Source: Bacilli bacterium
Lineage (GTDB): Bacteria > Bacillota_I > Bacilli_A > RF39 > UBA660
NCBI GenBank assembly: GCA_025992315.1
Contig: DAJPHG010000001.1
Coordinates: 881,633 to 945,632 of the forward strand
Direction of reading: 5' to 3'
DNA length: 64,000 bases
The translations under genes and the position numbers were made by a program. This document shows, in pieces, positions 32,611-42,321 of this stretch. Position 1 is the first letter of the stretch, and each line of letters begins with the position of its first letter. The notes beneath the pieces were generated by a model. The model saw only the letters and a program-made list of their open reading frames with translations, was not told the DNA's origin and searched no databases.

Positions 32611-35600
32611 ATGATAGAAATAATTAAATCTAATTATGAAAAAATGTCTGAAAATAAAAATAATAGTTTAGAAGATACATCTTATGCAATTGCTATAAAA
32701 AATAAAGAAAGTGATTATTATGAGATTCTAAAAGATAAAGAATTTTATGATGATTTTGTTATATATAAAAAAGCTAATTGGGTTGGAATAAATCCCTATA
32801 TTTTATTTGATAATGAAATAATGAATTGTTTATTTAATACTTTGACTGATAAGTATCCTTACATTACAATTAGATTAAATGCTAGTCATCCTCAGGAAAT
32901 AGAAGAAGCAATGAAGTATGGTTTCGCAAAAGAGAAAAATACTAAATTAGATTATGGTTTGACAATTATTACTTTAAAAAAGTGGTTAATTGATTTTGAT
33001 AATAAATTTGTTTACATGTTTAAAGAAGGAAATAAGGATATGAGAGAGATATTAGGAGGGAAAGGAGCTAATTTAGCAGAAATGATAAATATTGGCTTAC
33101 CAGTTCCTAATGGTTTTACTATCTCAACTAGAGCATGTAATAAATATTATGAAAATAATGAGCAAATACCTGCTAGTTTGATTAATGAAATAAAAACTAA
33201 AATTGAAGAATTAGAAAAAATAACTAATAGATATTTTAATGCTAGTAATAATCCTTTGCTTGTTTCAGTTAGATCTGGGTCACAAGCATCTATGCCAGGG
33301 ATGATGGATACTATTTTGAATTTAGGATTAAATGATGGTGTAGCAGAAAGTTTTGCTAAGGAAACAAATAATCCAAGATTTGTTTATGATTCTTATCGTA
33401 GATTAATAATGATGTTTGCAGATGTAGTAAAAGGATATGATAAATCTAATTTTGAACATATTTTAGATGAATATAAACAAACTCAAAAAGCTCAAAGTGA
33501 TTTAGATTTAGATGCAGATGATATGATAGAAATAACTAAATTGTTTAAAGAAGAATACTTTAGAGTATTTAATGAGGAATTTCCTCAAGATCCAATCAAA
33601 CAACTTATAGAATCAGTAGCGTCAGTATTTAAATCTTGGAATAATAAACGTGCTAAGATTTATCGTAAAATGAATGATATTCCAGATAGCTGGGGAACTG
33701 CTGTTAATGTTCAAGAAATGGTTTACGGAAACTTTGGAGAAAATTCAGGAACTGGTGTAGCATTTACTAGAAATCCTGCTACTGGTGAAAATAAATTATT
33801 TGGAGAATATTTGATTAATGCTCAAGGTGAAGACGTAGTTGCTGGTGTTAGAACGCCACAACCTATATCTAAGTTAAAAGAAGATATGCCTGAGATTTAT
33901 GATGAATTTGAAAAAATAGCTAAAACATTAGAAGAACATTATAAAGATATGCAAGATATGGAATTTACGATTCAAAAAGGTAAACTTTATATGTTACAAA
34001 CAAGAAATGGTAAAAGAACTGCTGCAGCTTCTTTAAAAATAGCTGTTGATATGGTAGAAGAAGGTTTATTGACTAAAGATGAAGCTTTATTAAAAGTAGA
34101 GCCAAAAACATTGGATCAATTATTACATCCAACTTTTAATGAGGAAAGTCTAGAAAATGCTACCGTAATTGCTAAAGGGCTTGCAGCTTCTCCAGGATGT
34201 GCTTATGGTAAAATTTATTTTGATGCTAACAGTTTAAAAATTGCTCATCAAAATAATGAAGATGTTATTTTAGTTAGACAAGAAACATCACCAGAAGATA
34301 TTGAAGGGATGAACATTGCTAATGGCGTACTTACTGTTAGAGGTGGTATGACTTCACATGCTGCTGTTGTAGCTCGTGGAATGGGAACATGTTGTGTTAG
34401 TGGTTGTAGTGAATTAGTAATAAATGAAGAACAAAAGACATTAACTGTTGGAGATAAAATTTATCATGAAGGTGATTATATTTCATTAGATGGATCAACT
34501 GGATTGGTGTATGACGGAATTATTCAAACTATACCAGCTAAAATAACTGGAAACTTTAAAACTTTTATGCAATGGGCTGATGAAATTAGAACTCTTGAAA
34601 TTCATACAAATGCTGATACTGTAAAAGATGCTAAGCAAGCCAAAGAATTTGGAGCAGAAGGAATTGGTTTATGTAGAACAGAACATATGTTTTTTGAAAA
34701 AGAAAGAATTTTCCATTTTAGAAAAATGATTCTAGCTAATTCAAAAGAAGAAAGAATTACAGCTTTAAATGAAATTTTAAAATATCAACAAAATGATTTT
34801 GAAGGACTATTTAAAGAAATGTCCCCATATTCAGTAGTAATTCGTTATTTAGATCCGCCATTACATGAATTTTTGCCAAAAGAAGAACAAGAAATTGTTG
34901 AATTAGCAAATGCTTTGCATGTTACTGTCGGAAGTATAAAGAATAGAATTGCCGAATTAAAAGAATTTAACCCAATGATGGGGCATAGAGGTTGTCGACT
35001 TGCTGTGACTTATCCTGAAATTGCAGTAATGCAAACTACAGCTATTATTGAAGCTGCAATTAATGTTACTCATCAAGGTTACAAAATTATGCCAGAAATT
35101 ATGATACCTTTAATTGGTGATGAAAAAGAATTAAGATATGTTAAAAATATTGTAAAAGAAACTGCTGATAAATTGATTAGTACTGCTAATATAAACTTAA
35201 AATATAAAGTTGGAACTATGATAGAAATACCAAGAGCTGCTTTATTAGCTGATGAAATAGCTCAAGAAGCAGAGTTTTTCTCTTTTGGAACTAATGATTT
35301 AACGCAATTTACTTTTGGCTTTTCTAGAGATGATGCTTCAAAATTTTTAAAAACGTATTATGATGAAAAAATATATGACTTTGATCCTTTCGCTAGATTA
35401 GATCAAAATGGTGTCGGTCAATTGGTAGAAATGGCTGTTACAAAAGCTAAAAAAGTTAGAAATGATATTTCTTTAGGAATATGTGGAGAACACGCGGGAG
35501 AGCCTCATAGTATAGAATTTTGCCATAAAATAGGCTTGAATTATGTTTCGTGTTCACCATTTAGAGTTCCTTGTGCTAGACTAGCTGCTGCACAAGCTGT

Positions 35601-35622
35601 GATCAAATCAAAAAATAATTAA
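32611..35622 (+). CDS. ppdK: pyruvate, phosphate dikinase with an N-terminal extension of about 131 aa
   Basis: The canonical PPDK begins at residue ~132 (KFVYMFKEG..LGGKGANLAEM). It has the catalytic GGMTSHAAVVARGMG and the C-terminal GICGE. A strong AAGGAGG SD serves the ATG at 32611. Confidence 0.95.
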   Translation: MIEIIKSNYEKMSENKNNSLEDTSYAIAIKNKESDYYEILKDKEFYDDFVIYKKANWVGINPYILFDNEIMNCLFNTLTDKYPYITIRLNASHPQEIEEAMKYGFAKEKNTKLDYGLTIITLKKWLIDFDNKFVYMFKEGNKDMREILGGKGANLAEMINIGLPVPNGFTISTRACNKYYENNEQIPASLINEIKTKIEELEKITNRYFNASNNPLLVSVRSGSQASMPGMMDTILNLGLNDGVAESFAKETNNPRFVYDSYRRLIMMFADVVKGYDKSNFEHILDEYKQTQKAQSDLDLDADDMIEITKLFKEEYFRVFNEEFPQDPIKQLIESVASVFKSWNNKRAKIYRKMNDIPDSWGTAVNVQEMVYGNFGENSGTGVAFTRNPATGENKLFGEYLINAQGEDVVAGVRTPQPISKLKEDMPEIYDEFEKIAKTLEEHYKDMQDMEFTIQKGKLYMLQTRNGKRTAAASLKIAVDMVEEGLLTKDEALLKVEPKTLDQLLHPTFNEESLENATVIAKGLAASPGCAYGKIYFDANSLKIAHQNNEDVILVRQETSPEDIEGMNIANGVLTVRGGMTSHAAVVARGMGTCCVSGCSELVINEEQKTLTVGDKIYHEGDYISLDGSTGLVYDGIIQTIPAKITGNFKTFMQWADEIRTLEIHTNADTVKDAKQAKEFGAEGIGLCRTEHMFFEKERIFHFRKMILANSKEERITALNEILKYQQNDFEGLFKEMSPYSVVIRYLDPPLHEFLPKEEQEIVELANALHVTVGSIKNRIAELKEFNPMMGHRGCRLAVTYPEIAVMQTTAIIEAAINVTHQGYKIMPEIMIPLIGDEKELRYVKNIVKETADKLISTANINLKYKVGTMIEIPRAALLADEIAQEAEFFSFGTNDLTQFTFGFSRDDASKFLKTYYDEKIYDFDPFARLDQNGVGQLVEMAVTKAKKVRNDISLGICGEHAGEPHSIEFCHKIGLNYVSCSPFRVPCARLAAAQAVIKSKNN

Positions 35623-36643: not shown

Positions 36644-36671
36644 TTGACAAATATTAAAAGTATGCTAAAAT
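36644..36671 (+). promoter_or_regulatory. near-consensus sigma-A promoter with extended -10
   Basis: TTGACA (36644-36649), a 16-nt spacer ending in TGc, then TAAAAT (36666-36671). An AGGAGGAG SD and the ATG at 36702 follow. Confidence 0.6.
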
Positions 36672-36701: not shown

Positions 36702-36854
36702 ATGAAAAAAGATTCTATAATGGAATTATTAGATTTAATCAAAAAAATCAGTGCTAGGAATAAATATTATACTAACATTACTTACTCATGTTCTCTTTTA
36801 GACTTAATTAGTAATAAGATAATAACGGTGACCGAAAATTACATTATAATATAG
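36702..36854 (+). CDS. 50-aa small ORF with strong expression signals
   Basis: Product is MKKDSIMELLDLIKKISARNKYYTNITYSCSLLDLISNKIITVTENYIII. It has a consensus promoter, an AGGAGG SD, and a long hairpin (AATAACGGTG at 36821-36830 pairing with CACCGTTATT at 36865-36874) spanning the stop. Confidence 0.4.
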   Translation: MKKDSIMELLDLIKKISARNKYYTNITYSCSLLDLISNKIITVTENYIII

Positions 36855-36896: not shown

Positions 36897-37380
36897 ATGG
36901 ATAATAGTATTACATTACAAGATTTATTGAATAAATTAAGAGAATATAATCCTGAAGAAGTAGAAATTGTTAAAAGAGCTTACGAATACGCTGATACATT
37001 GCATAAGGGGCAAATGAGACAAAGTGGTGAGCCATAAATTTGTCATCCATTAAATGTTGCATATATTTTGGCAGAGATGCATGCAGATAGAGATACAATA
37101 TGTGCTGGACTACTTCATGATACTTTAGAAGATACAAACAGTACTAAAGAAGATATATATCACATGATTTTAATCAAAATATTGCTAATTTGGTAGATGA
37201 TGTAACAAAATTATCAAAAATGATTTTTCTTCTAAATAAGATTAGAATTATGCAAATACAAGAAAAATAATAACGGGAATAACTGAAGATTTAAGAATAA
37301 TTATAATTAAATTGGCTGATAGACTTCATAACATGAGAGCATTACAATTTAAATCGGAATTTAAGCAAAAAGAAAAATAA
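36897..37380 (+). pseudogene. RelA/SpoT-homolog N-terminal HD (hydrolase) domain remnant
   Basis: The translation has [44 protein letters not shown] with an in-frame TAA at 37035-37037 where Tyr is expected. Two frameshifts are then needed to read [17 protein letters not shown] and RIIIIKLADRLHNMRAL. The synthetase, TGS and ACT parts are absent. Confidence 0.8.
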
Positions 37381-37475
37381 AGGAATTCAATAAAAAATAG
37401 TACCACTGAATTATGAGTTTATAGGGAACTCATTGTAAAAAAAATATTAAACAAAGAAGGAGGTGATTAACTATT

Positions 37476-37532
37476 ATGAGAAAATTAATGAGAAAATTTA
37501 ATAAAAAATATGATATGTTATGTACTGCATAG
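37476..37532 (+). CDS. 18-aa ORF directly upstream of the YcaO operon (candidate substrate or leader peptide)
   Basis: Product is MRKLMRKFNKKYDMLCTA. A 10-nt SD, AAGGAGGTGA (37457-37466), lies 9 nt upstream of the ATG. It ends 57 nt before the 537-aa gene. Confidence 0.35.
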   Translation: MRKLMRKFNKKYDMLCTA

Positions 37533-37552
37533 TTATCATGTAAATTTATAGT

Positions 37553-37567
37553 CATAGTATTACTATG
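37553..37567. repeat. 15-nt perfect palindrome CATAGTAtTACTATG between the 18-aa ORF and the 537-aa gene
   Basis: Read directly from the sequence. It has 7-1-7 symmetry, so it is more plausibly a dimeric-regulator operator than an RNA hairpin. Confidence 0.5.
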
Positions 37568-37589
37568 GCTTTATAGGGAGACTTAATAA

Positions 37590-39203
37590 ATGGAAAATAT
37601 AAAGAGTAAAATAATACCAGAAAGTTTAAAAAGTAATATTGATGAAGTTATGGAGAGACAATTATTTAATGCTAACAGATATTACGCGGAGTCCAATCCA
37701 GAGATAAGTAGTTTGATGGAAAAAGAATTATATCAAAGTCCAATGGAATTTTTATATAGATTAAAAACAAGATGGAACTGGCATAATACTTATTATGAAT
37801 TATTATTAGAACCTGCTTTTGATAAAATTATTCGTGAGAATTTTACTGAATTATCGCCAGCAGAATTGAATGATATTATAAATATTTATTCAACTTCTTG
37901 TTTAGTCGACGAAGCGACACTTGTAATGTCAGGCTCAATTAAAAAATATTTGGATTACAATTGTAAAAATATTGGAGTTACTGATGAAAATATTTCGACA
38001 GAAAATTTAAATATAATGTTAATTACTCCGCCAATTGAAACTTTCTTTGCTCAATATCAAATTGACCATTTATATTACATATATTTGCTTAAAACAAATG
38101 ATACTGCTACTCAAAAGTTTAAGAATTATCTATTAAAAAAATATCATGCTAATGATGAAAAAATATTTGCTTCTAGATTTCAAAAGAAATTTAAGAATAA
38201 TTTATCAATGACTGAGAGAGAACTTTTAGAAGATATTAGACATTACAGAATACCTGAATATTACAAAACTCAACATTTTTACTTTACTCTTGAACATCCA
38301 GATAGGAAAGCAATTAGAGATATTATTATTTATGATAATTTAGACGAAAAATTAATTGCTTCTAATTTAATTGGAATTTCTGGATTCTTATTTAGAAGAA
38401 AGATTTTAGAATATCTTAATAATAGTGGAATTTTAAAAAATAATGGGTATATATATGAATTTAACAATGATATAATCATAAGTTCATTAGAAAGATTAAA
38501 AGAAGAAAGGAAAAATAATATGGATAAAGATGTAAGACCATATAAACAAAGGGGAGATACTTGTGCTATTGTTTGCATGATGATGGTATTGGAATACTAT
38601 AAAGTTATTCCAAAGGCGAATTGGTATGACGAAAGAAGATTATATAGGCTATACGGTTCAAAATATATGGACGGGACACCATTTTCAGCTTTAGCATTTT
38701 ATATGTCAAAAAATGGTTTGGAAACAACAATTTGTCATGAAAGTCAAAAATTATTTAAAAATGATCAAGGAGTTGTTGATCAAGATGATTTTAAATTTGC
38801 AATGGATGAATACAAAGACTATTTAAAATATGCAGAAAATAATGGTACAAAAGTTGTAAATGGTATGGATATAACTGTTGATGTTTTAAAACAAAAATTA
38901 CAAAATGGTGATTTAGTTATATTGGCAGGTGAGCTTCCAGGTGCTTATCATGCAATTTTACTTACAGGTTATGACCAAGATGGTTTCAAAGTATGTGATC
39001 CACTATATAAGACAAAACAAAACAGGACATTTGATGAAATAGAAAAATTTATGAATACAAGTATAGGTAAATGGTTTATAAGTGTTAATGATAAGACAAA
39101 AGAAAAAGAAAATTTAATTAATAATTTAGAAAAATTCAACGATGAAGCACAAATATTAATGACTAAACAAGAAAGCAGGAGCCTTAAGCATGTTAAAAAA
39201 TAA
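37590..39203 (+). CDS. two-domain protein: unassigned helical N-terminal half plus C-terminal C39-type papain-like cysteine peptidase domain
   Basis: 537 aa. Residues about 320-500 have Q-x4-C (YKQRGDTCAIVCMMMVLEYY) and His-x16-Asp-Pro (YHAILLTGYDQDGFKVCDP), as in Peptidase_C39 and C39-like domains. A GGGAGA RBS is present. Confidence 0.7.
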   Translation: MENIKSKIIPESLKSNIDEVMERQLFNANRYYAESNPEISSLMEKELYQSPMEFLYRLKTRWNWHNTYYELLLEPAFDKIIRENFTELSPAELNDIINIYSTSCLVDEATLVMSGSIKKYLDYNCKNIGVTDENISTENLNIMLITPPIETFFAQYQIDHLYYIYLLKTNDTATQKFKNYLLKKYHANDEKIFASRFQKKFKNNLSMTERELLEDIRHYRIPEYYKTQHFYFTLEHPDRKAIRDIIIYDNLDEKLIASNLIGISGFLFRRKILEYLNNSGILKNNGYIYEFNNDIIISSLERLKEERKNNMDKDVRPYKQRGDTCAIVCMMMVLEYYKVIPKANWYDERRLYRLYGSKYMDGTPFSALAFYMSKNGLETTICHESQKLFKNDQGVVDQDDFKFAMDEYKDYLKYAENNGTKVVNGMDITVDVLKQKLQNGDLVILAGELPGAYHAILLTGYDQDGFKVCDPLYKTKQNRTFDEIEKFMNTSIGKWFISVNDKTKEKENLINNLEKFNDEAQILMTKQESRSLKHVKK

Positions 39204-39525
39204 TTATTTGTTTTATAGTGATTACTTAAAAAAAAGAAATTTAAAAGCTAAGTCAATATTGATTGCCAAAACTAAATATTCATATTTAATTGGTCCGTTA
39301 ATAAATTCAAAGTTTGATGAAGATTCATTTTATAAAAGAATTAAATCTGATAGTATATATACCCTTAACATATATAAAAAAATGTTTAGAAAAAAACGTA
39401 ATAATTTGATTGAAAAATATATGAATGATTTGAAGAATAATCAAATAATTGAAATATATAAAAACGGAGAAATAGTTAAACATTCAATATTAAAAGTTCC
39501 GGGTGAAAATTATGGAAAAGAATAA
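39190..39525 (+). CDS. 111-aa protein translationally coupled on both sides, possible minimal YcaO partner
   Basis: An AGGAG SD lies 8 nt upstream. It overlaps both the upstream and downstream genes by 14 nt. SILIAKTKYSYLIGPLINSKFDEDSFYKRI faintly resembles the vGP...C..C..R segment of E1-like/TIGR03882 cyclodehydratase partners, but without the Cys residues. Confidence 0.5.
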   Translation: MLKNNYLFYSDYLKKRNLKAKSILIAKTKYSYLIGPLINSKFDEDSFYKRIKSDSIYTLNIYKKMFRKKRNNLIEKYMNDLKNNQIIEIYKNGEIVKHSILKVPGENYGKE

Positions 39526-40789
39526 GCTAATTTTAAATAGAAAAGAAATTATAAGTATTTTAGGAAAAGAGTATGAAGGATTAGCAGATATATTTAGTGA
39601 TAAGTTTGGAATAGTAAATGCTATGTTAGAACGACATGAACTAGATAAGTATAATCTTTTCATGTATCAATGTTTAAGTGCAAATACTGTTGATTTATTT
39701 GGTTTAAGTAGAGAAGTTTCTAGTGGTGGTTTAGGTGTAAATGAAAATAAAAAAATTGCCATGACTAGTTGTTTAGCAGAAGCATTAGAACGTTATTGTA
39801 TGTCTTATATTCCCAAAAAAGAAATTATAAAGAGTGCGAAAATAAATTTAAGAAAAGAAAATACTTTTGATAACTTTTTTACATATAGTGAAGAACAATA
39901 TGATAAATTAGATTTGTTTTTAAATCCAAATAAAGAAAAAATAGAGTGGACAAAAATTTATAATATTGATAGTAGAAAAAAATTTAAGTACTGGCCTGCT
40001 AGTTTGATATATTTACCATATGATTTAAATAAAACAGTGGCAGAAACAACTTCAACAGGTATGGCCGCTGGATTTACATTAGATGAATGCATACAAAGTG
40101 GATTGTTAGAATTGATAGAGAGAGATGCATTGATGGTTAATTTTATGCAACGCCTGAATCCACCTGAAATTAATTTGGAAACTTTAGATGGTGAAAATTT
40201 AAAATTGATAAAGAAAATACAAAAAGAATATGATATAAAAATTTACAAATTGTATTCTGATATTAAAGTTCCTATTTATTTATCTATTATTTATAAAGAG
40301 GAAAAGAAGCATATACATTATGGTATAGGTGCATGTGCTAGTATAAATTCTGATTATGCCATTAATAAATCATTAAAAGAATGTTTATTCACTTATTTCT
40401 ATTCTTTAAATATAATGGATGCTCGACAAGGTGATCCTAAAAAAATAAAAACGTTATATGAACACTTTTTATATTATCAAGGCGATAATTTTAAAAAATT
40501 ATTATTTAATAGTAAGGTAATTAATTATAAAAAAGAAGTTGTATCATTTAATGACTTATTAAAAAATTTAAAATCCCAAAATATAGACGTATATTATAAA
40601 GAATTAACTACTGATGACATTAAGAAAACTGGTATTAAGGTTGTTAAGGTTATTGCTCCAAGTTTAATTGATTTAAATAAAAGTCATATATACCCAAGAC
40701 TAGGAGCAGAACGATTTTTCCTTGTACCAGAGAAATTAAAATTAAAACATAATAAAAAGTTAACGGAGATGCCTCATCCGTTTCCATAG
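39512..40789 (+). CDS. YcaO-family ATP-dependent amide-activating enzyme (cyclodehydratase type)
   Basis: Contains SGGLGVNENKKIAMTSCLAEALERYC, TSTGMAAGFTLDECIQSGLLELIERDA and the extreme C-terminal MPHPFP (PxPxP). ATG at 39512 follows GGGTGA, with GTG at 39503 as an alternative. Confidence 0.9.
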   Translation: MEKNKLILNRKEIISILGKEYEGLADIFSDKFGIVNAMLERHELDKYNLFMYQCLSANTVDLFGLSREVSSGGLGVNENKKIAMTSCLAEALERYCMSYIPKKEIIKSAKINLRKENTFDNFFTYSEEQYDKLDLFLNPNKEKIEWTKIYNIDSRKKFKYWPASLIYLPYDLNKTVAETTSTGMAAGFTLDECIQSGLLELIERDALMVNFMQRLNPPEINLETLDGENLKLIKKIQKEYDIKIYKLYSDIKVPIYLSIIYKEEKKHIHYGIGACASINSDYAINKSLKECLFTYFYSLNIMDARQGDPKKIKTLYEHFLYYQGDNFKKLLFNSKVINYKKEVVSFNDLLKNLKSQNIDVYYKELTTDDIKKTGIKVVKVIAPSLIDLNKSHIYPRLGAERFFLVPEKLKLKHNKKLTEMPHPFP

Positions 40790-40799
40790 GGGGATAATT

Positions 40800-41690
40800 A
40801 TGAGTGAAAGAGATAAATTAGATATTTTATTGTACAATACATACATCAATATGAGTGATGAAAATCGTTGTACAGATAGATTAGAATTAATTGCGGAACA
40901 TTACAAAGTAAATGTTGATTATTTATATAACAGATATTTATGGTTGGTGAATATGGGAATTGATCCTAATTATTATCATTTGGATGAAAATCATGCATTG
41001 ATATATAGAATATTTGACGAATATAACAAAATGCTTAACGAGAACAATATTGAGTATTATTATACTAGTGGAATCCTTGCATATTTGTTGGTTGATAGAG
41101 ACTTAGAGAGATATCATCATGATTTAGATATTTTTATAAATATGGAACATTTGGAAAAGTTGGAACAAATTTGTTGTGATTATAATTTTTTGTTTGAACG
41201 AAAAATAGGTGAACGCGGTGATGGAACAAAAAGAGTGATGTTAAAAATGTACTATAAAGATATTATTGATATTCCGATAACTGTTTTTATGTATGTTAAA
41301 GAAAAAGATGGTTCCATTACTCAAAAAGATTATTTTGTTAATGAAAATAATAGAAAATTAGTTGAATATATTCATAATTCTCCATTAATTAGTAAATTAA
41401 GTTTCTCTGAAATTCCTAAAAATCATAATGGCATTAAATACTATTCCATAACGCCAGAAGCACTATTTTTATGTAAAACCGAAAATAGGCCAAAAGATGT
41501 TTACGATTGTACCGTTTTTAGTAATATTGTAGATAAAAATAAGCTTGAAGAATTAAGTAAAGCATTTAAATATAATTTACCTAATAATATTGTTGAAGCA
41601 AACAATGATGAATTTTCAAATTATATTTTTAAAAATAATGAACCAGAGAAAATAAAAGTTAGTAAGAGGGTATTGATAAAACATGATTGA
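40800..41690 (+). CDS. Pol-beta-fold nucleotidyltransferase (Lnu/ANT(2'')-like) with C-terminal extension
   Basis: 296 aa. YYTSGILAYLLVDRDLERYHHDLDIFI fits the G-x(n)-R-x-H-x-D-h-D-h NTase active-site pattern of small-molecule nucleotidyltransferases. A GGGGGA RBS is present. Confidence 0.6.
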   Translation: MSERDKLDILLYNTYINMSDENRCTDRLELIAEHYKVNVDYLYNRYLWLVNMGIDPNYYHLDENHALIYRIFDEYNKMLNENNIEYYYTSGILAYLLVDRDLERYHHDLDIFINMEHLEKLEQICCDYNFLFERKIGERGDGTKRVMLKMYYKDIIDIPITVFMYVKEKDGSITQKDYFVNENNRKLVEYIHNSPLISKLSFSEIPKNHNGIKYYSITPEALFLCKTENRPKDVYDCTVFSNIVDKNKLEELSKAFKYNLPNNIVEANNDEFSNYIFKNNEPEKIKVSKRVLIKHD

Positions 41691-42321
41691 TTATAGTTTA
41701 TATTTATGTACGAATAGTGAAATAAATATTGATTATCCACTTGAATATTGTGTAGAGCAAGCAATTTTAGGTGGCGTTACAATAGTCCAAATTAGAGAAA
41801 AAGGGAAAAATTATAATGAGTTCTTTCAGATTGCATCTAGAATAAAAAAAGTAACTGATAAATATAATATACCATTAATTATAAACGATAACCTTGAGGT
41901 TGCAAAAAATATCAAAGCTGATGGAATCCATATTGGACAAAATGATATATCTTGTTTGGAAGCAAGAAAAATTCTAGGCCCTAAAAAAATAATAGGTGTA
42001 ACTGTAACAAATCTTAGTGAAGCAAAAAAGGCAATTGAAGATGGTGCATCATATTTGTGAGTTGGTGCTATATATAAATCAACAACTAAAAAGGATGCAT
42101 TGGTAGTAGGTGTTGATAAGTTAAGAAAAATAGCAGATTATTCTTCAATACCAGTTATAGTAATAGGTGGTATTAACAAAAATACGATTCCTATATTAGA
42201 GGGAATTAAAATAGATGGTTATGCTATGATTAGACCGATATTAGCACAGGAAAATATTATTGATTCTACTAAAAAATTAAAAAGATTAATATATAATAAT
42301 AAAAAATCGTTAGATGTTTAA
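41683..42321 (+). pseudogene. thiE: thiamine-phosphate synthase / TenI-fold gene with one in-frame TGA
   Basis: The 212-codon frame is colinear with ThiE (LYLCT, IVQIREK, IINDNLEVA, GIHIGQND, IPVIVIGGI). TGA at 42058-42060 replaces the first Gly of the conserved GADY-I/L-G-VG motif (GASYL*VGAIY). The ATGATTGA overlap couples it to the NTase gene. Confidence 0.8.

Follow-up and report, generated by a model that had tools for sequence, protein, structure and literature searches.

What does a C39-like cysteine peptidase process when no transporter accompanies it, and what is the long helical region fused in front of it? This question is raised by one gene in a 64,000-nucleotide stretch of contig DAJPHG010000001.1 (assembly GCA_025992315.1), hereafter the window, from an RF39-type Bacilli genome. 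Common in the gut communities of humans and animals, RF39-type Bacilli are uncultured and have reduced genomes, and to our knowledge almost nothing is known of their secondary metabolism. The protein encoded by the gene, 537 amino acids long, joins a papain-type (C39-like) cysteine peptidase to a helical domain not described before (the N-domain). On balance, and with moderate confidence, we take it to be the dedicated intracellular processing peptidase of a compact YcaO-type operon resembling those for peptides made on the ribosome and modified after translation (RiPPs), with the N-domain acting as substrate-recognition module. Its parts, in window coordinates, are as follows.

37590-39203, forward strand: peptidase gene (N-domain plus C39-like peptidase), with ATG at 37590 and the stop codon ending at 39203; 537 amino acids.
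37590-38519, forward strand: N-terminal all-helical domain, residues 1-310, from the AlphaFold2 model (predicted local distance difference test, pLDDT, mostly 85-97).
38520-39203, forward strand: C39-like papain-fold peptidase domain (residues 311-523), C-terminal helix and disordered tail, from PF13529 and the fold matches.
38547-38549, 38562-38564, 38949-38951 and 38997-38999, forward strand: catalytic codons of Gln320, Cys325, His454 and Asp470, respectively.

An earlier note, written from the sequence alone, had described a stand-alone C39-type cysteine peptidase domain at the C-terminus. This description holds, given that the domain has a predicted papain-like fold and an invariant catalytic set, and is not joined to an ATP-binding cassette (ABC) exporter. 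Segment YKQRGDTCAIVC holds Gln320 and Cys325, while YHAILLTGYDQDGFKVCDP holds His454, Asp470 and Pro471. The ordered Gln/Cys and His/Asp-Pro motifs that had been reported are both present, yet the spacing of the second is His-x15-Asp (15 residues lie between His454 and Asp470) and not His-x16-Asp. In an alignment of 23 homologs, with identity down to 44%, Gln320, Cys325, His454 and Asp470-Pro471 are invariant, and this Gln/Cys/His/Asp arrangement is far above chance expectation.

The profile search proposed for the C-terminal half yields Peptidase_C39_2 (PF13529), which covers residues 314-471 (profile positions 2-142 of 143) with an E-value of 3.5e-10 and passes the gathering threshold with 41 bits against a cut-off of 24. 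A precomputed PF13529 annotation is also present on nearly all homologs. Pfam matches are confined to the C-terminal part of the 537-residue protein, and an NCBIfam search gave no match anywhere along it. The AlphaFold2 model presents a pLDDT of 91.4 and a predicted template modelling score (pTM) of 0.87, and the latter indicates that the two predicted domains are packed in a defined way. Residues 310-523 form an alpha/beta domain, to which all Foldseek matches in the PDB are restricted. The best of these are 3erv (a C39-like peptidase, ranked top), the PCAT1 peptidase domain 7n87, ComA 5xe9, AvrRpt2 and PeiR, with a template modelling score on the target of 0.65-0.72 for 7n87 and 5xe9 (0.71 for the latter). 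A fold search of viral proteins returned peptidase-domain matches only.

Membership of family C39 proper is a different matter. The true C39 model, PF03412, matches residues 320-390 only, with an E-value of 0.079 and 13.2 bits against a cut-off of 22, and the C70 and DUF3335 models are also under their Pfam cut-offs for this protein. Since the PF03412 match is not significant, the domain is called C39-like and not a certified C39 member. From the four features that mark C39 membership, the papain fold with its Gln/Cys/His/Asp set is present, while the profile match, the fusion to an ABC exporter and a double-glycine site in the candidate substrate are absent. Hence, the C39 identity given in the earlier note stands as far as PF13529 and the fold are concerned, and is not borne out for C39 in the strict sense. 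Cleavage after Gly-Gly, which that note had associated with such domains, is unlikely to apply here, judging by the only conserved candidate substrate: the peptide MRKLMRKFNKKYDMLCTA has no GG, GA or GS, and indeed no Gly at all.

The protein has 148 homologs among 5.8 billion proteins, nearly all of them full-length (about 537 residues). Their sources are gut metagenome bins with the label Bacilli; those few that bear a name are called "C39 family peptidase". Met311 (38520-38522), at the domain boundary, is invariant in the 23 aligned homologs and is followed by a conserved (D/E)K(N/D)V-x-PYKQ, so an internal start yielding the peptidase domain alone is conceivable from the sequence. Relatives consisting of the peptidase domain only, 65-85% identical, were found at L018:6924-7541, L021:8001-8645, L026:7866-8327, L017:8001-8729, L023, L024:8022-8606 and L025. 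These loci, although of the same group, are without the short open reading frame (ORF), N-domain, YcaO or p296 described below. Some copies are decayed remnants that carry stop codons, have Ser in place of Cys or have suffered a deletion. Three others, 194-204 residues long, are intact and start at a Met aligned with Met311. The cassette is evidently undergoing loss in some lineages, and the peptidase domain may also exist alone.

The N-terminal half is helical and unassignable to any family, as the earlier note had said, though its extent is residues 1-310 and not the 320 or so given there. Residues 1-309 are predicted at high confidence by AlphaFold2 as helices only, with no strands, and no match was found in Pfam, in NCBIfam, among PDB sequences (profile search) or among PDB folds (Foldseek). 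The same note had suggested that this half stands in for a missing RiPP recognition element (RRE) or E1-like partner, and had proposed a structure prediction and fold search for a winged helix-turn-helix RRE-like or E1-like fold. Neither fold was seen in the PDB comparison. Both an RRE and an E1-like fold are therefore rejected for a domain that consists of helices throughout and is matched neither by fold nor by profile. The suggestion also fails on context, for N-domain homologs are fused or adjacent to C39-like peptidases in operons without YcaO as well.

Among the 310 positions of the N-domain, 50 are invariant in the 23 homologs. The invariant polar residues include W62, W64, H65, N66, E70, E74, D107, K118, H160, H186, R196, D249, N250, E253, K254 and R269. 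When a profile of residues 1-310 was run against 1.84 billion representative proteins, only 109 matches were obtained, some of them fused forms of about 500-560 residues and some stand-alone proteins of about 310-350 residues. The stand-alone forms of about 320 residues are homologous across 294 columns (hhalign probability 99.9%, E-value 1e-34) and retain, at about 20% identity, W-x2-HN, S-x-G-x-K, FH, R, YDN-x2-E and LRK. The N-domain is therefore a rare protein family, and it appears to be new. A profile built from the alignment of stand-alone forms found no loci in genome or metagenome contigs.

The arrangement of these relatives bears on the role of the domain. At L030 and L031 an N-domain gene (322 residues) overlaps a separate downstream C39-like peptidase gene (191 residues), and at L029 the same is seen with genes of 349 and 168 residues. 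The split peptidase presents 27% identity with the peptidase domain of the 537-residue protein, with an E-value of 4e-13. Fusion or adjacency to a peptidase is the commonest arrangement of the N-domain. Because the two are fused here and encoded by adjacent overlapping genes elsewhere, N-domain and peptidase constitute a functional pair that is sometimes fused; and because such pairs also occur in YcaO-free operons, it is the peptidase, and not YcaO, that the N-domain accompanies. Hence, the N-domain probably serves the peptidase.

The candidate substrate and the remaining genes of the operon lie on either side of the peptidase gene.

37457-37466, forward strand: strong ribosome-binding site AAGGAGGTGA of the 18-codon ORF, read from the sequence.
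37476-37532, forward strand: 18-codon ORF with its stop codon; the product, MRKLMRKFNKKYDMLCTA, is a candidate for the precursor or scaffold peptide.
37550-37570, forward strand: stem-loop AGTCATAGT-att-ACTATGGCT, located after the short ORF and before the ribosome-binding site of the peptidase gene.
39190-39525, forward strand: p111, a basic 111-residue protein found in every cassette; candidate accessory subunit of YcaO.
39503-40789, forward strand: SagD-type YcaO cyclodehydratase of 428 residues, ending in PHPFP (alternative ATG at 39512).
40800-41690, forward strand: p296, a nucleotidyltransferase-like protein of 296 residues present in all complete cassettes.

In every locus, short ORFs were sought within the 1.6 kb that lie upstream of the peptidase gene. 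The 18-codon ORF is the sole conserved one, lying about 60-110 nucleotides before the peptidase start, with an AGGAGG-type site at the same distance in front of it in all relatives. By pattern search, every one of the 19 loci with an included 5' end of the peptidase gene has it directly upstream. It is absent from all other loci, which hold the peptidase-domain part only. Across loci, M1, K7, F8, K11, D13, C16 and T17 are invariant. Codon changes are synonymous at Leu15, Cys16, Thr17, Asp13 and Phe8 (TGT/TGC, TTA/CTT/CTA/TTG, ACT/ACA, GAT/GAC), and replacements are conservative (K/R, L/I/M), the most divergent versions being MRKLLKKFNRKMDLICTV and MRRILKKFDRKFDMICTA. The peptide is more strongly conserved than the enzymes of the operon. 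As read from these substitutions, selection is acting on its amino-acid sequence.

The invariant Cys-Thr, two residues from the C-terminus of the peptide, is what an azoline-forming YcaO needs. Cys16 and Thr17 are also the only candidate residues of its core, which is far smaller than known cores of thiazole/oxazole-modified microcins (TOMMs) or linear azol(in)e-containing peptides. No other conserved short ORF bearing Cys, Ser or Thr was found in the operon, nor was a second precursor ORF found between YcaO and p296 or after p296. A literature search returned nothing on the system, on the peptide sequence or on RF39 together with YcaO.

A hairpin after a RiPP precursor gene is often seen, and one stands here between the short ORF and the peptidase gene. 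RNAalifold, applied to 11 loci, yields a consensus helix of nine pairs, two of which are kept through changes on both sides. The most distant loci, L016 and L020, have differently sequenced hairpins at the same position. As to its function, it may be an attenuator, a stabiliser or an operator. No match to a riboswitch or known RNA was found in Rfam across the whole window.

The complete order of the operon is the 18-residue peptide gene, the hairpin, the N-domain/C39-like peptidase, p111, YcaO and the nucleotidyltransferase-like p296. In a tblastn comparison, the order peptidase, p111, YcaO, p296 is fixed in 17 of 26 related loci, with peptidase identity down to 50%, and the 18-codon ORF and this gene order co-vary perfectly across loci. 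In the window, the peptidase and p111 genes overlap by 14 nucleotides, p111 and YcaO overlap by 23, and YcaO and p296 are separated by 10.

The YcaO protein matches PF02624 with an E-value of 3.6e-43 and TIGR03604 with 200.5 bits, just below the cut-off of 219.25; its nearest solved relatives are MusD, LynD, TruD, MJ1094 and McbD. Its ATP-binding motifs AEALERY and ELIERDA and the terminal PHPFP are found in the window, as well as in all 16 loci whose YcaO reading frame is complete. A C-terminal PxPxP is the canonical motif of azoline-forming YcaOs (PMC12338566). The p111 protein belongs to a family of 113 proteins that was encountered in this cassette only. Most members have about 106-116 residues, and those that are shorter appear to be fragments. 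It matches no known family in Pfam or NCBIfam and no PDB sequence. In its AlphaFold2 model (pLDDT 78), the best fold match, a weak one, is to the E1-like RiPP enzyme PaaA (5ff5_B, E-value 0.058, probability 0.54), with a weaker one to ThiF (rank 11, probability 0.11). This fold match is suggestive and not conclusive. Nonetheless p111, being conserved and encoded in overlap with YcaO, is a better candidate than the N-domain for a YcaO accessory subunit. No Pfam or NCBIfam match to an E1-like (SagC/McbB) or Ocin-ThiF-like partner was obtained for any cassette protein.

Regarding p296, comparison with the pattern of Pol-beta-type nucleotidyltransferases, G[SG]-x(9-20)-[DE]h[DE]h, points to the motif SG-x16-HHDLDIF (S90-G91 ... 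H106-H107-D108-L-D110), which is invariant and is covered by a weak profile match to the lincosamide nucleotidyltransferase 4fo1 (E-value 0.25). Sub-threshold family matches were obtained to PF14907 NTP_transf_5 in five of 12 members (best E-value 1e-3) and to PF10706 [ANT(2'')] in two of 12. All these profile matches are weak, and p296 is read here as a candidate nucleotidyltransferase.

The earlier note was also correct that a transporter is missing: none is encoded in the operon, and no PCAT-type exporter (an ABC transporter with its own peptidase domain) was seen among the ORFs of at least 150 residues across the window. Similarly, no nitroreductase-type match to an azoline dehydrogenase (SagB/McbC) was found in the cassette proteins, and none was seen by eye among the window ORFs. 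A defence role against phage was considered and set aside, as PADLOC gave no match.

Gene content and conservation are observed, and the steps of a pathway may be inferred from them as follows. The 18-residue peptide would be translated and serve as substrate. YcaO, possibly aided by p111, would carry out the ATP-dependent cyclodehydration of Cys16 to a thiazoline, and perhaps that of Thr17 to a methyloxazoline. The p296 protein may add a nucleotide to a hydroxyl, Thr17 being the only invariant one. The N-domain would grip the basic amphipathic N-terminal part of the peptide and present it to the Cys325/His454 site, where cleavage would give either a modified C-terminal fragment of 3-5 residues or a trimmed peptide. 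Given that the window has no exporter, immunity gene or dehydrogenase, the product may be a very small azoline-bearing fragment that acts inside the cell or exits by a general route.

Several observations weigh against a processing peptidase of this kind. No exporter, immunity gene, azoline dehydrogenase or recognisable E1-like or RRE partner is present in the window, and without GG, GA or GS in the peptide the position of the cut is not predictable from its sequence. Most of the distant N-domain/peptidase pairs lie in operons without a recognisable RiPP enzyme. The invariant polar residues of the N-domain could, judging by their type, be an active site and not a binding groove. Finally, the argument from charge, a small hint in favour of pairing, comprises two cases only: the net charges of N-domain and peptide are complementary in the window (-5 and +5) and at L032 (+10 for the N-domain protein P0159 and -4 for its neighbouring peptide).

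The alternative that survives best concerns that conserved surface: the N-domain would itself be enzymatic, tailoring or activating a peptide or small molecule, and the 537-residue protein would be bifunctional. Of the 310 positions 50 are invariant, many of them polar or charged residues typical of active sites, and a subset persists in stand-alone homologs despite an identity of only about 20%. Such separate proteins have about 320 residues, and one of them, at L032, has no peptidase gene called directly downstream. However, it has no likeness to any enzyme family or fold searched, a near-invariant peptide alone could explain a highly conserved binding surface, and fusion or adjacency to the peptidase is the usual arrangement. 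We therefore consider an enzymatic N-domain unlikely, though it deserves to be kept in mind.

Considerably less room is left for a second alternative, in which the peptidase targets an unrelated cellular or host protein and the 18-codon ORF, together with the hairpin, governs expression of the downstream genes as a regulatory leader or arrest peptide. It would account for the distant N-domain/peptidase pairs without YcaO or a visible short ORF, for the conserved palindromic stem-loop after the short ORF, and for the several related genomes that keep only a peptidase-domain gene of 194-204 residues and no cassette. Yet the hairpin leaves the ribosome-binding site of the peptidase gene uncovered and has no clear U-tract, and the short ORF and the five-gene order co-vary perfectly. 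The invariant Cys-Thr fits an azoline-forming YcaO, with no other short ORF bearing Cys, Ser or Thr conserved. Also against it, the 537-residue protein has no secretion signal, as judged by eye. This alternative is thus rather improbable, and less supported than a cognate-peptide substrate. Least probable is that the papain-fold domain is an acyltransferase or transpeptidase (as are BtrH-type acyltransferases and phytochelatin synthase) moving the modified C-terminal fragment to an acceptor: although its best family is the broad Peptidase_C39_2 and not C39 proper, one of the 23 homologs has a weak match (E-value 0.013) to the BtrH-related acyltransferase DarH, and PMC13642728 reports a Q-C-H C39-like protein with a non-peptidase activity, the DarH-type matches are marginal, the nearest folds are the leader peptidases PCAT1 and ComA and a C39-like peptidase, and the operon has no acceptor-providing gene such as one for a carrier protein. 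Each of these three alternatives is less supported than processing of the cognate peptide.

In comparison with characterised systems, the peptidase domain resembles the leader peptidases of PCATs in fold and in its presumed mode of action. The C39 domains of PCAT1, ComA and LahT share its papain fold and Gln/Cys/His/Asp order, and 7n87 and 5xe9 are among its best structural matches. In PCATs these domains act as leader peptidases, and the leader they bind is an amphipathic helix (PMC10885120). Unlike in PCATs, no ABC transporter is present here, PF03412 is not significant, the candidate substrate is without GG, GA or GS, and a helical domain of 310 residues precedes the peptidase, whereas the PCAT transmembrane domain follows it. 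Stand-alone C39-like proteins of the PF13529/DUF3335 type, such as B. anthracis 3erv, represent the only significant sequence family and the top fold, and are likewise soluble and transporter-free. However, they are single-domain proteins of unknown substrate, and none has been described with the N-domain or in a YcaO operon.

TOMM clusters (SagBCD of streptolysin S, McbBCD of microcin B17) also have a SagD-type YcaO with a PxPxP end, a short Cys/Thr precursor and a dedicated peptidase. They differ in their SagC/McbB E1-like partner, SagB dehydrogenase and exporter, none of which is recognisable here, whereas in the present operon the candidate precursor is 18 residues long, its core holds a single Cys and a single Thr, and a nucleotidyltransferase-like gene is added. 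The cyanobactin and muscoride heterocyclases MusD, LynD and TruD contain the closest solved YcaO domains (E-values 2e-13 to 6e-11), yet their E1-like/RRE part is fused N-terminally, while here a YcaO of 428 residues is accompanied by a separate candidate partner of 111 residues. As for the RRE itself, the PqqD-like form shares with the N-domain the proposed role of binding the non-core part of the precursor, but it is a winged helix of about 90 residues with a three-stranded sheet. The N-domain, with 310 residues and no strands, has no sequence or fold likeness to it.

Parallels in logic are found in peptide-scaffold pathways without an exporter. For pearlins (TglA/TglG), a short peptide with conserved C-terminal residues is modified near its C-terminus, and a dedicated cytoplasmic or membrane peptidase sets a small product free (PMC10885120). 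The same features are shared by mycofactocin biosynthesis (MftA/MftE). The enzymes differ, being radical S-adenosylmethionine enzymes and a creatininase-type peptidase for mycofactocin and peptide aminoacyl-tRNA ligase (PEARL), DUF692 and M50 enzymes for pearlins, as opposed to YcaO and a papain-fold peptidase here. The present operon would likewise release a small product.

In a bolder extension, the N-domain would be a new kind of module for peptide recognition with no relation to the PqqD-like RRE, and its task would be to hand short precursor or scaffold peptides over to a papain-fold peptidase. In it, the RF39 operon would make from the C-terminus of the 18-residue peptide an exporter-free, intracellular, 3-5-residue thiazoline metabolite, possibly nucleotidylated, with a YcaO that works without a canonical E1-like partner. 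We regard this extension as speculative and doubtful as a whole. If true, it would represent a mycofactocin- or pearlin-like route built on YcaO without such a partner. At five genes and about 4.2 kb, the operon would be among the smallest YcaO pathways known. The N-domain accompanies papain-fold peptidases, and the peptide-modification operons in which it is found are of two kinds at least, YcaO and DUF692. Should it bind peptides, it is a recognition element overlooked by genome-mining tools, and a soluble, transporter-free leader peptidase of possible practical use would also be gained.

The DUF692 case is seen at L032:6223-8975 and at L033, where a stand-alone N-domain protein (324 residues) is encoded after a DUF692 enzyme and a 262-residue partner. 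The enzyme belongs to the MbnB/TglH/ChrH family (1e-73), and between the DUF692 genes and the N-domain gene lies a 22-codon ORF, MEFTIQEVLTTEVETKEKMCGD, ending in MCGD. By gene content, these loci look like an undescribed DUF692 peptide-modification cluster. This would be a second setting, unrelated to the first, with a Cys near the C-terminus of a short peptide. No peptidase gene is called directly downstream at L032, where the following gene has the opposite orientation and, about 870 nucleotides further on, the contig comes to an end. Beside other distant N-domain genes, no convincing short ORF was found. Most of the contigs with distant homologs are short.

Distant fused forms at L034, L036 and the P0179 contig are located in operons without YcaO, with a UCP032817-like protein, an alpha/beta hydrolase and a PPDK_N/PEP-utilizer protein as recurrent neighbours. 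The first is a small protein (PF27765, with an EVWHTHIL-like motif) observed at L030:3851-4402, L037:206-667 and L034:7592-7957; the second (Hydrolase_4) stands beside distant N-domain genes at L028:1380-1808 and L029:1730-2356. Both are absent from the cassette of the window. A separate PPDK_N/PEP-utilizer gene is found near the N-domain/peptidase gene on the P0179 contig. Only with read-through of TGA does an 850-residue call at L027:526-3078 unite an N-domain homolog with PPDK_N and PEP-utilizer domains. This contig has 24% G+C, and TGA may be a sense codon there. Since translation table 11 stops the ORF after 102 residues, this fusion (P0183) was not relied on.

Regarding the host, the peptidase gene is present in "Mycoplasma sp. 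CAG:472" (94% identity), whose type of genome we take to be of the RF39-type lineage, and in many metagenome-assembled genomes of uncultured Bacilli, their sources being the guts of humans, rabbits and other hosts. G+C in the window is 22-30%, nearly all long ORFs lie on one strand, and long ORFs read through under table 11. Housekeeping genes recognised by eye include fmt, rlmN, a PASTA kinase gene, dnaE, polC, the trigger factor gene, frr, ftsK and trmD. A pyruvate phosphate dikinase gene at 32611-35622 encodes 1003 residues with an N-terminal extension, the first 163 residues having no Pfam match.

Downstream, thiE (thiamine-phosphate synthase, TMP-TENI family; 41683-42321) begins within the last part of p296 and is interrupted in frame by a TGA at 42058-42060, codon 126, where Gly is expected. 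ThiE is intact (209-213 residues) in nine related loci and the TGA is seen in the window only, so thiE was rejected as a recoded gene. The TGA is a nonsense mutation (pseudogene) or a sequencing error confined to this genome. The gene follows the cassette in 11 of 16 loci and is absent after p296 in L008, L009, L015, L016 and L020. A link to the thiazole of thiamine, with thiE as a required part of the cassette, was likewise rejected, given that thiE is broken here beside an intact cassette and absent in these five loci; moreover, a thiazoline formed from Cys has a carbon skeleton that does not correspond to the thiazole of thiamine.

Upstream, 36897-37400 is a remnant of rel (RelA/SpoT-type), comprising the HD-domain part only. 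Frameshifts disrupt it, as does a TAA in place of a conserved Tyr codon; once repaired by hand, it matches HD_4 with an E-value of 1e-21. At L002 and L010 an intact rel ORF of about 480 residues is found at the same place, ending just before the 18-codon ORF. Before the remnant lies a 50-codon ORF (36702-36854) with an AGGAGG ribosome-binding site and an inverted repeat downstream. It is conserved in the closest relatives, and was discarded as a candidate precursor since it stands there upstream of rel and not beside the cassette. The best promoter-like site of the region, TTGACA-16-TAAAAT with a TG (36644-36671), is located upstream of this ORF.

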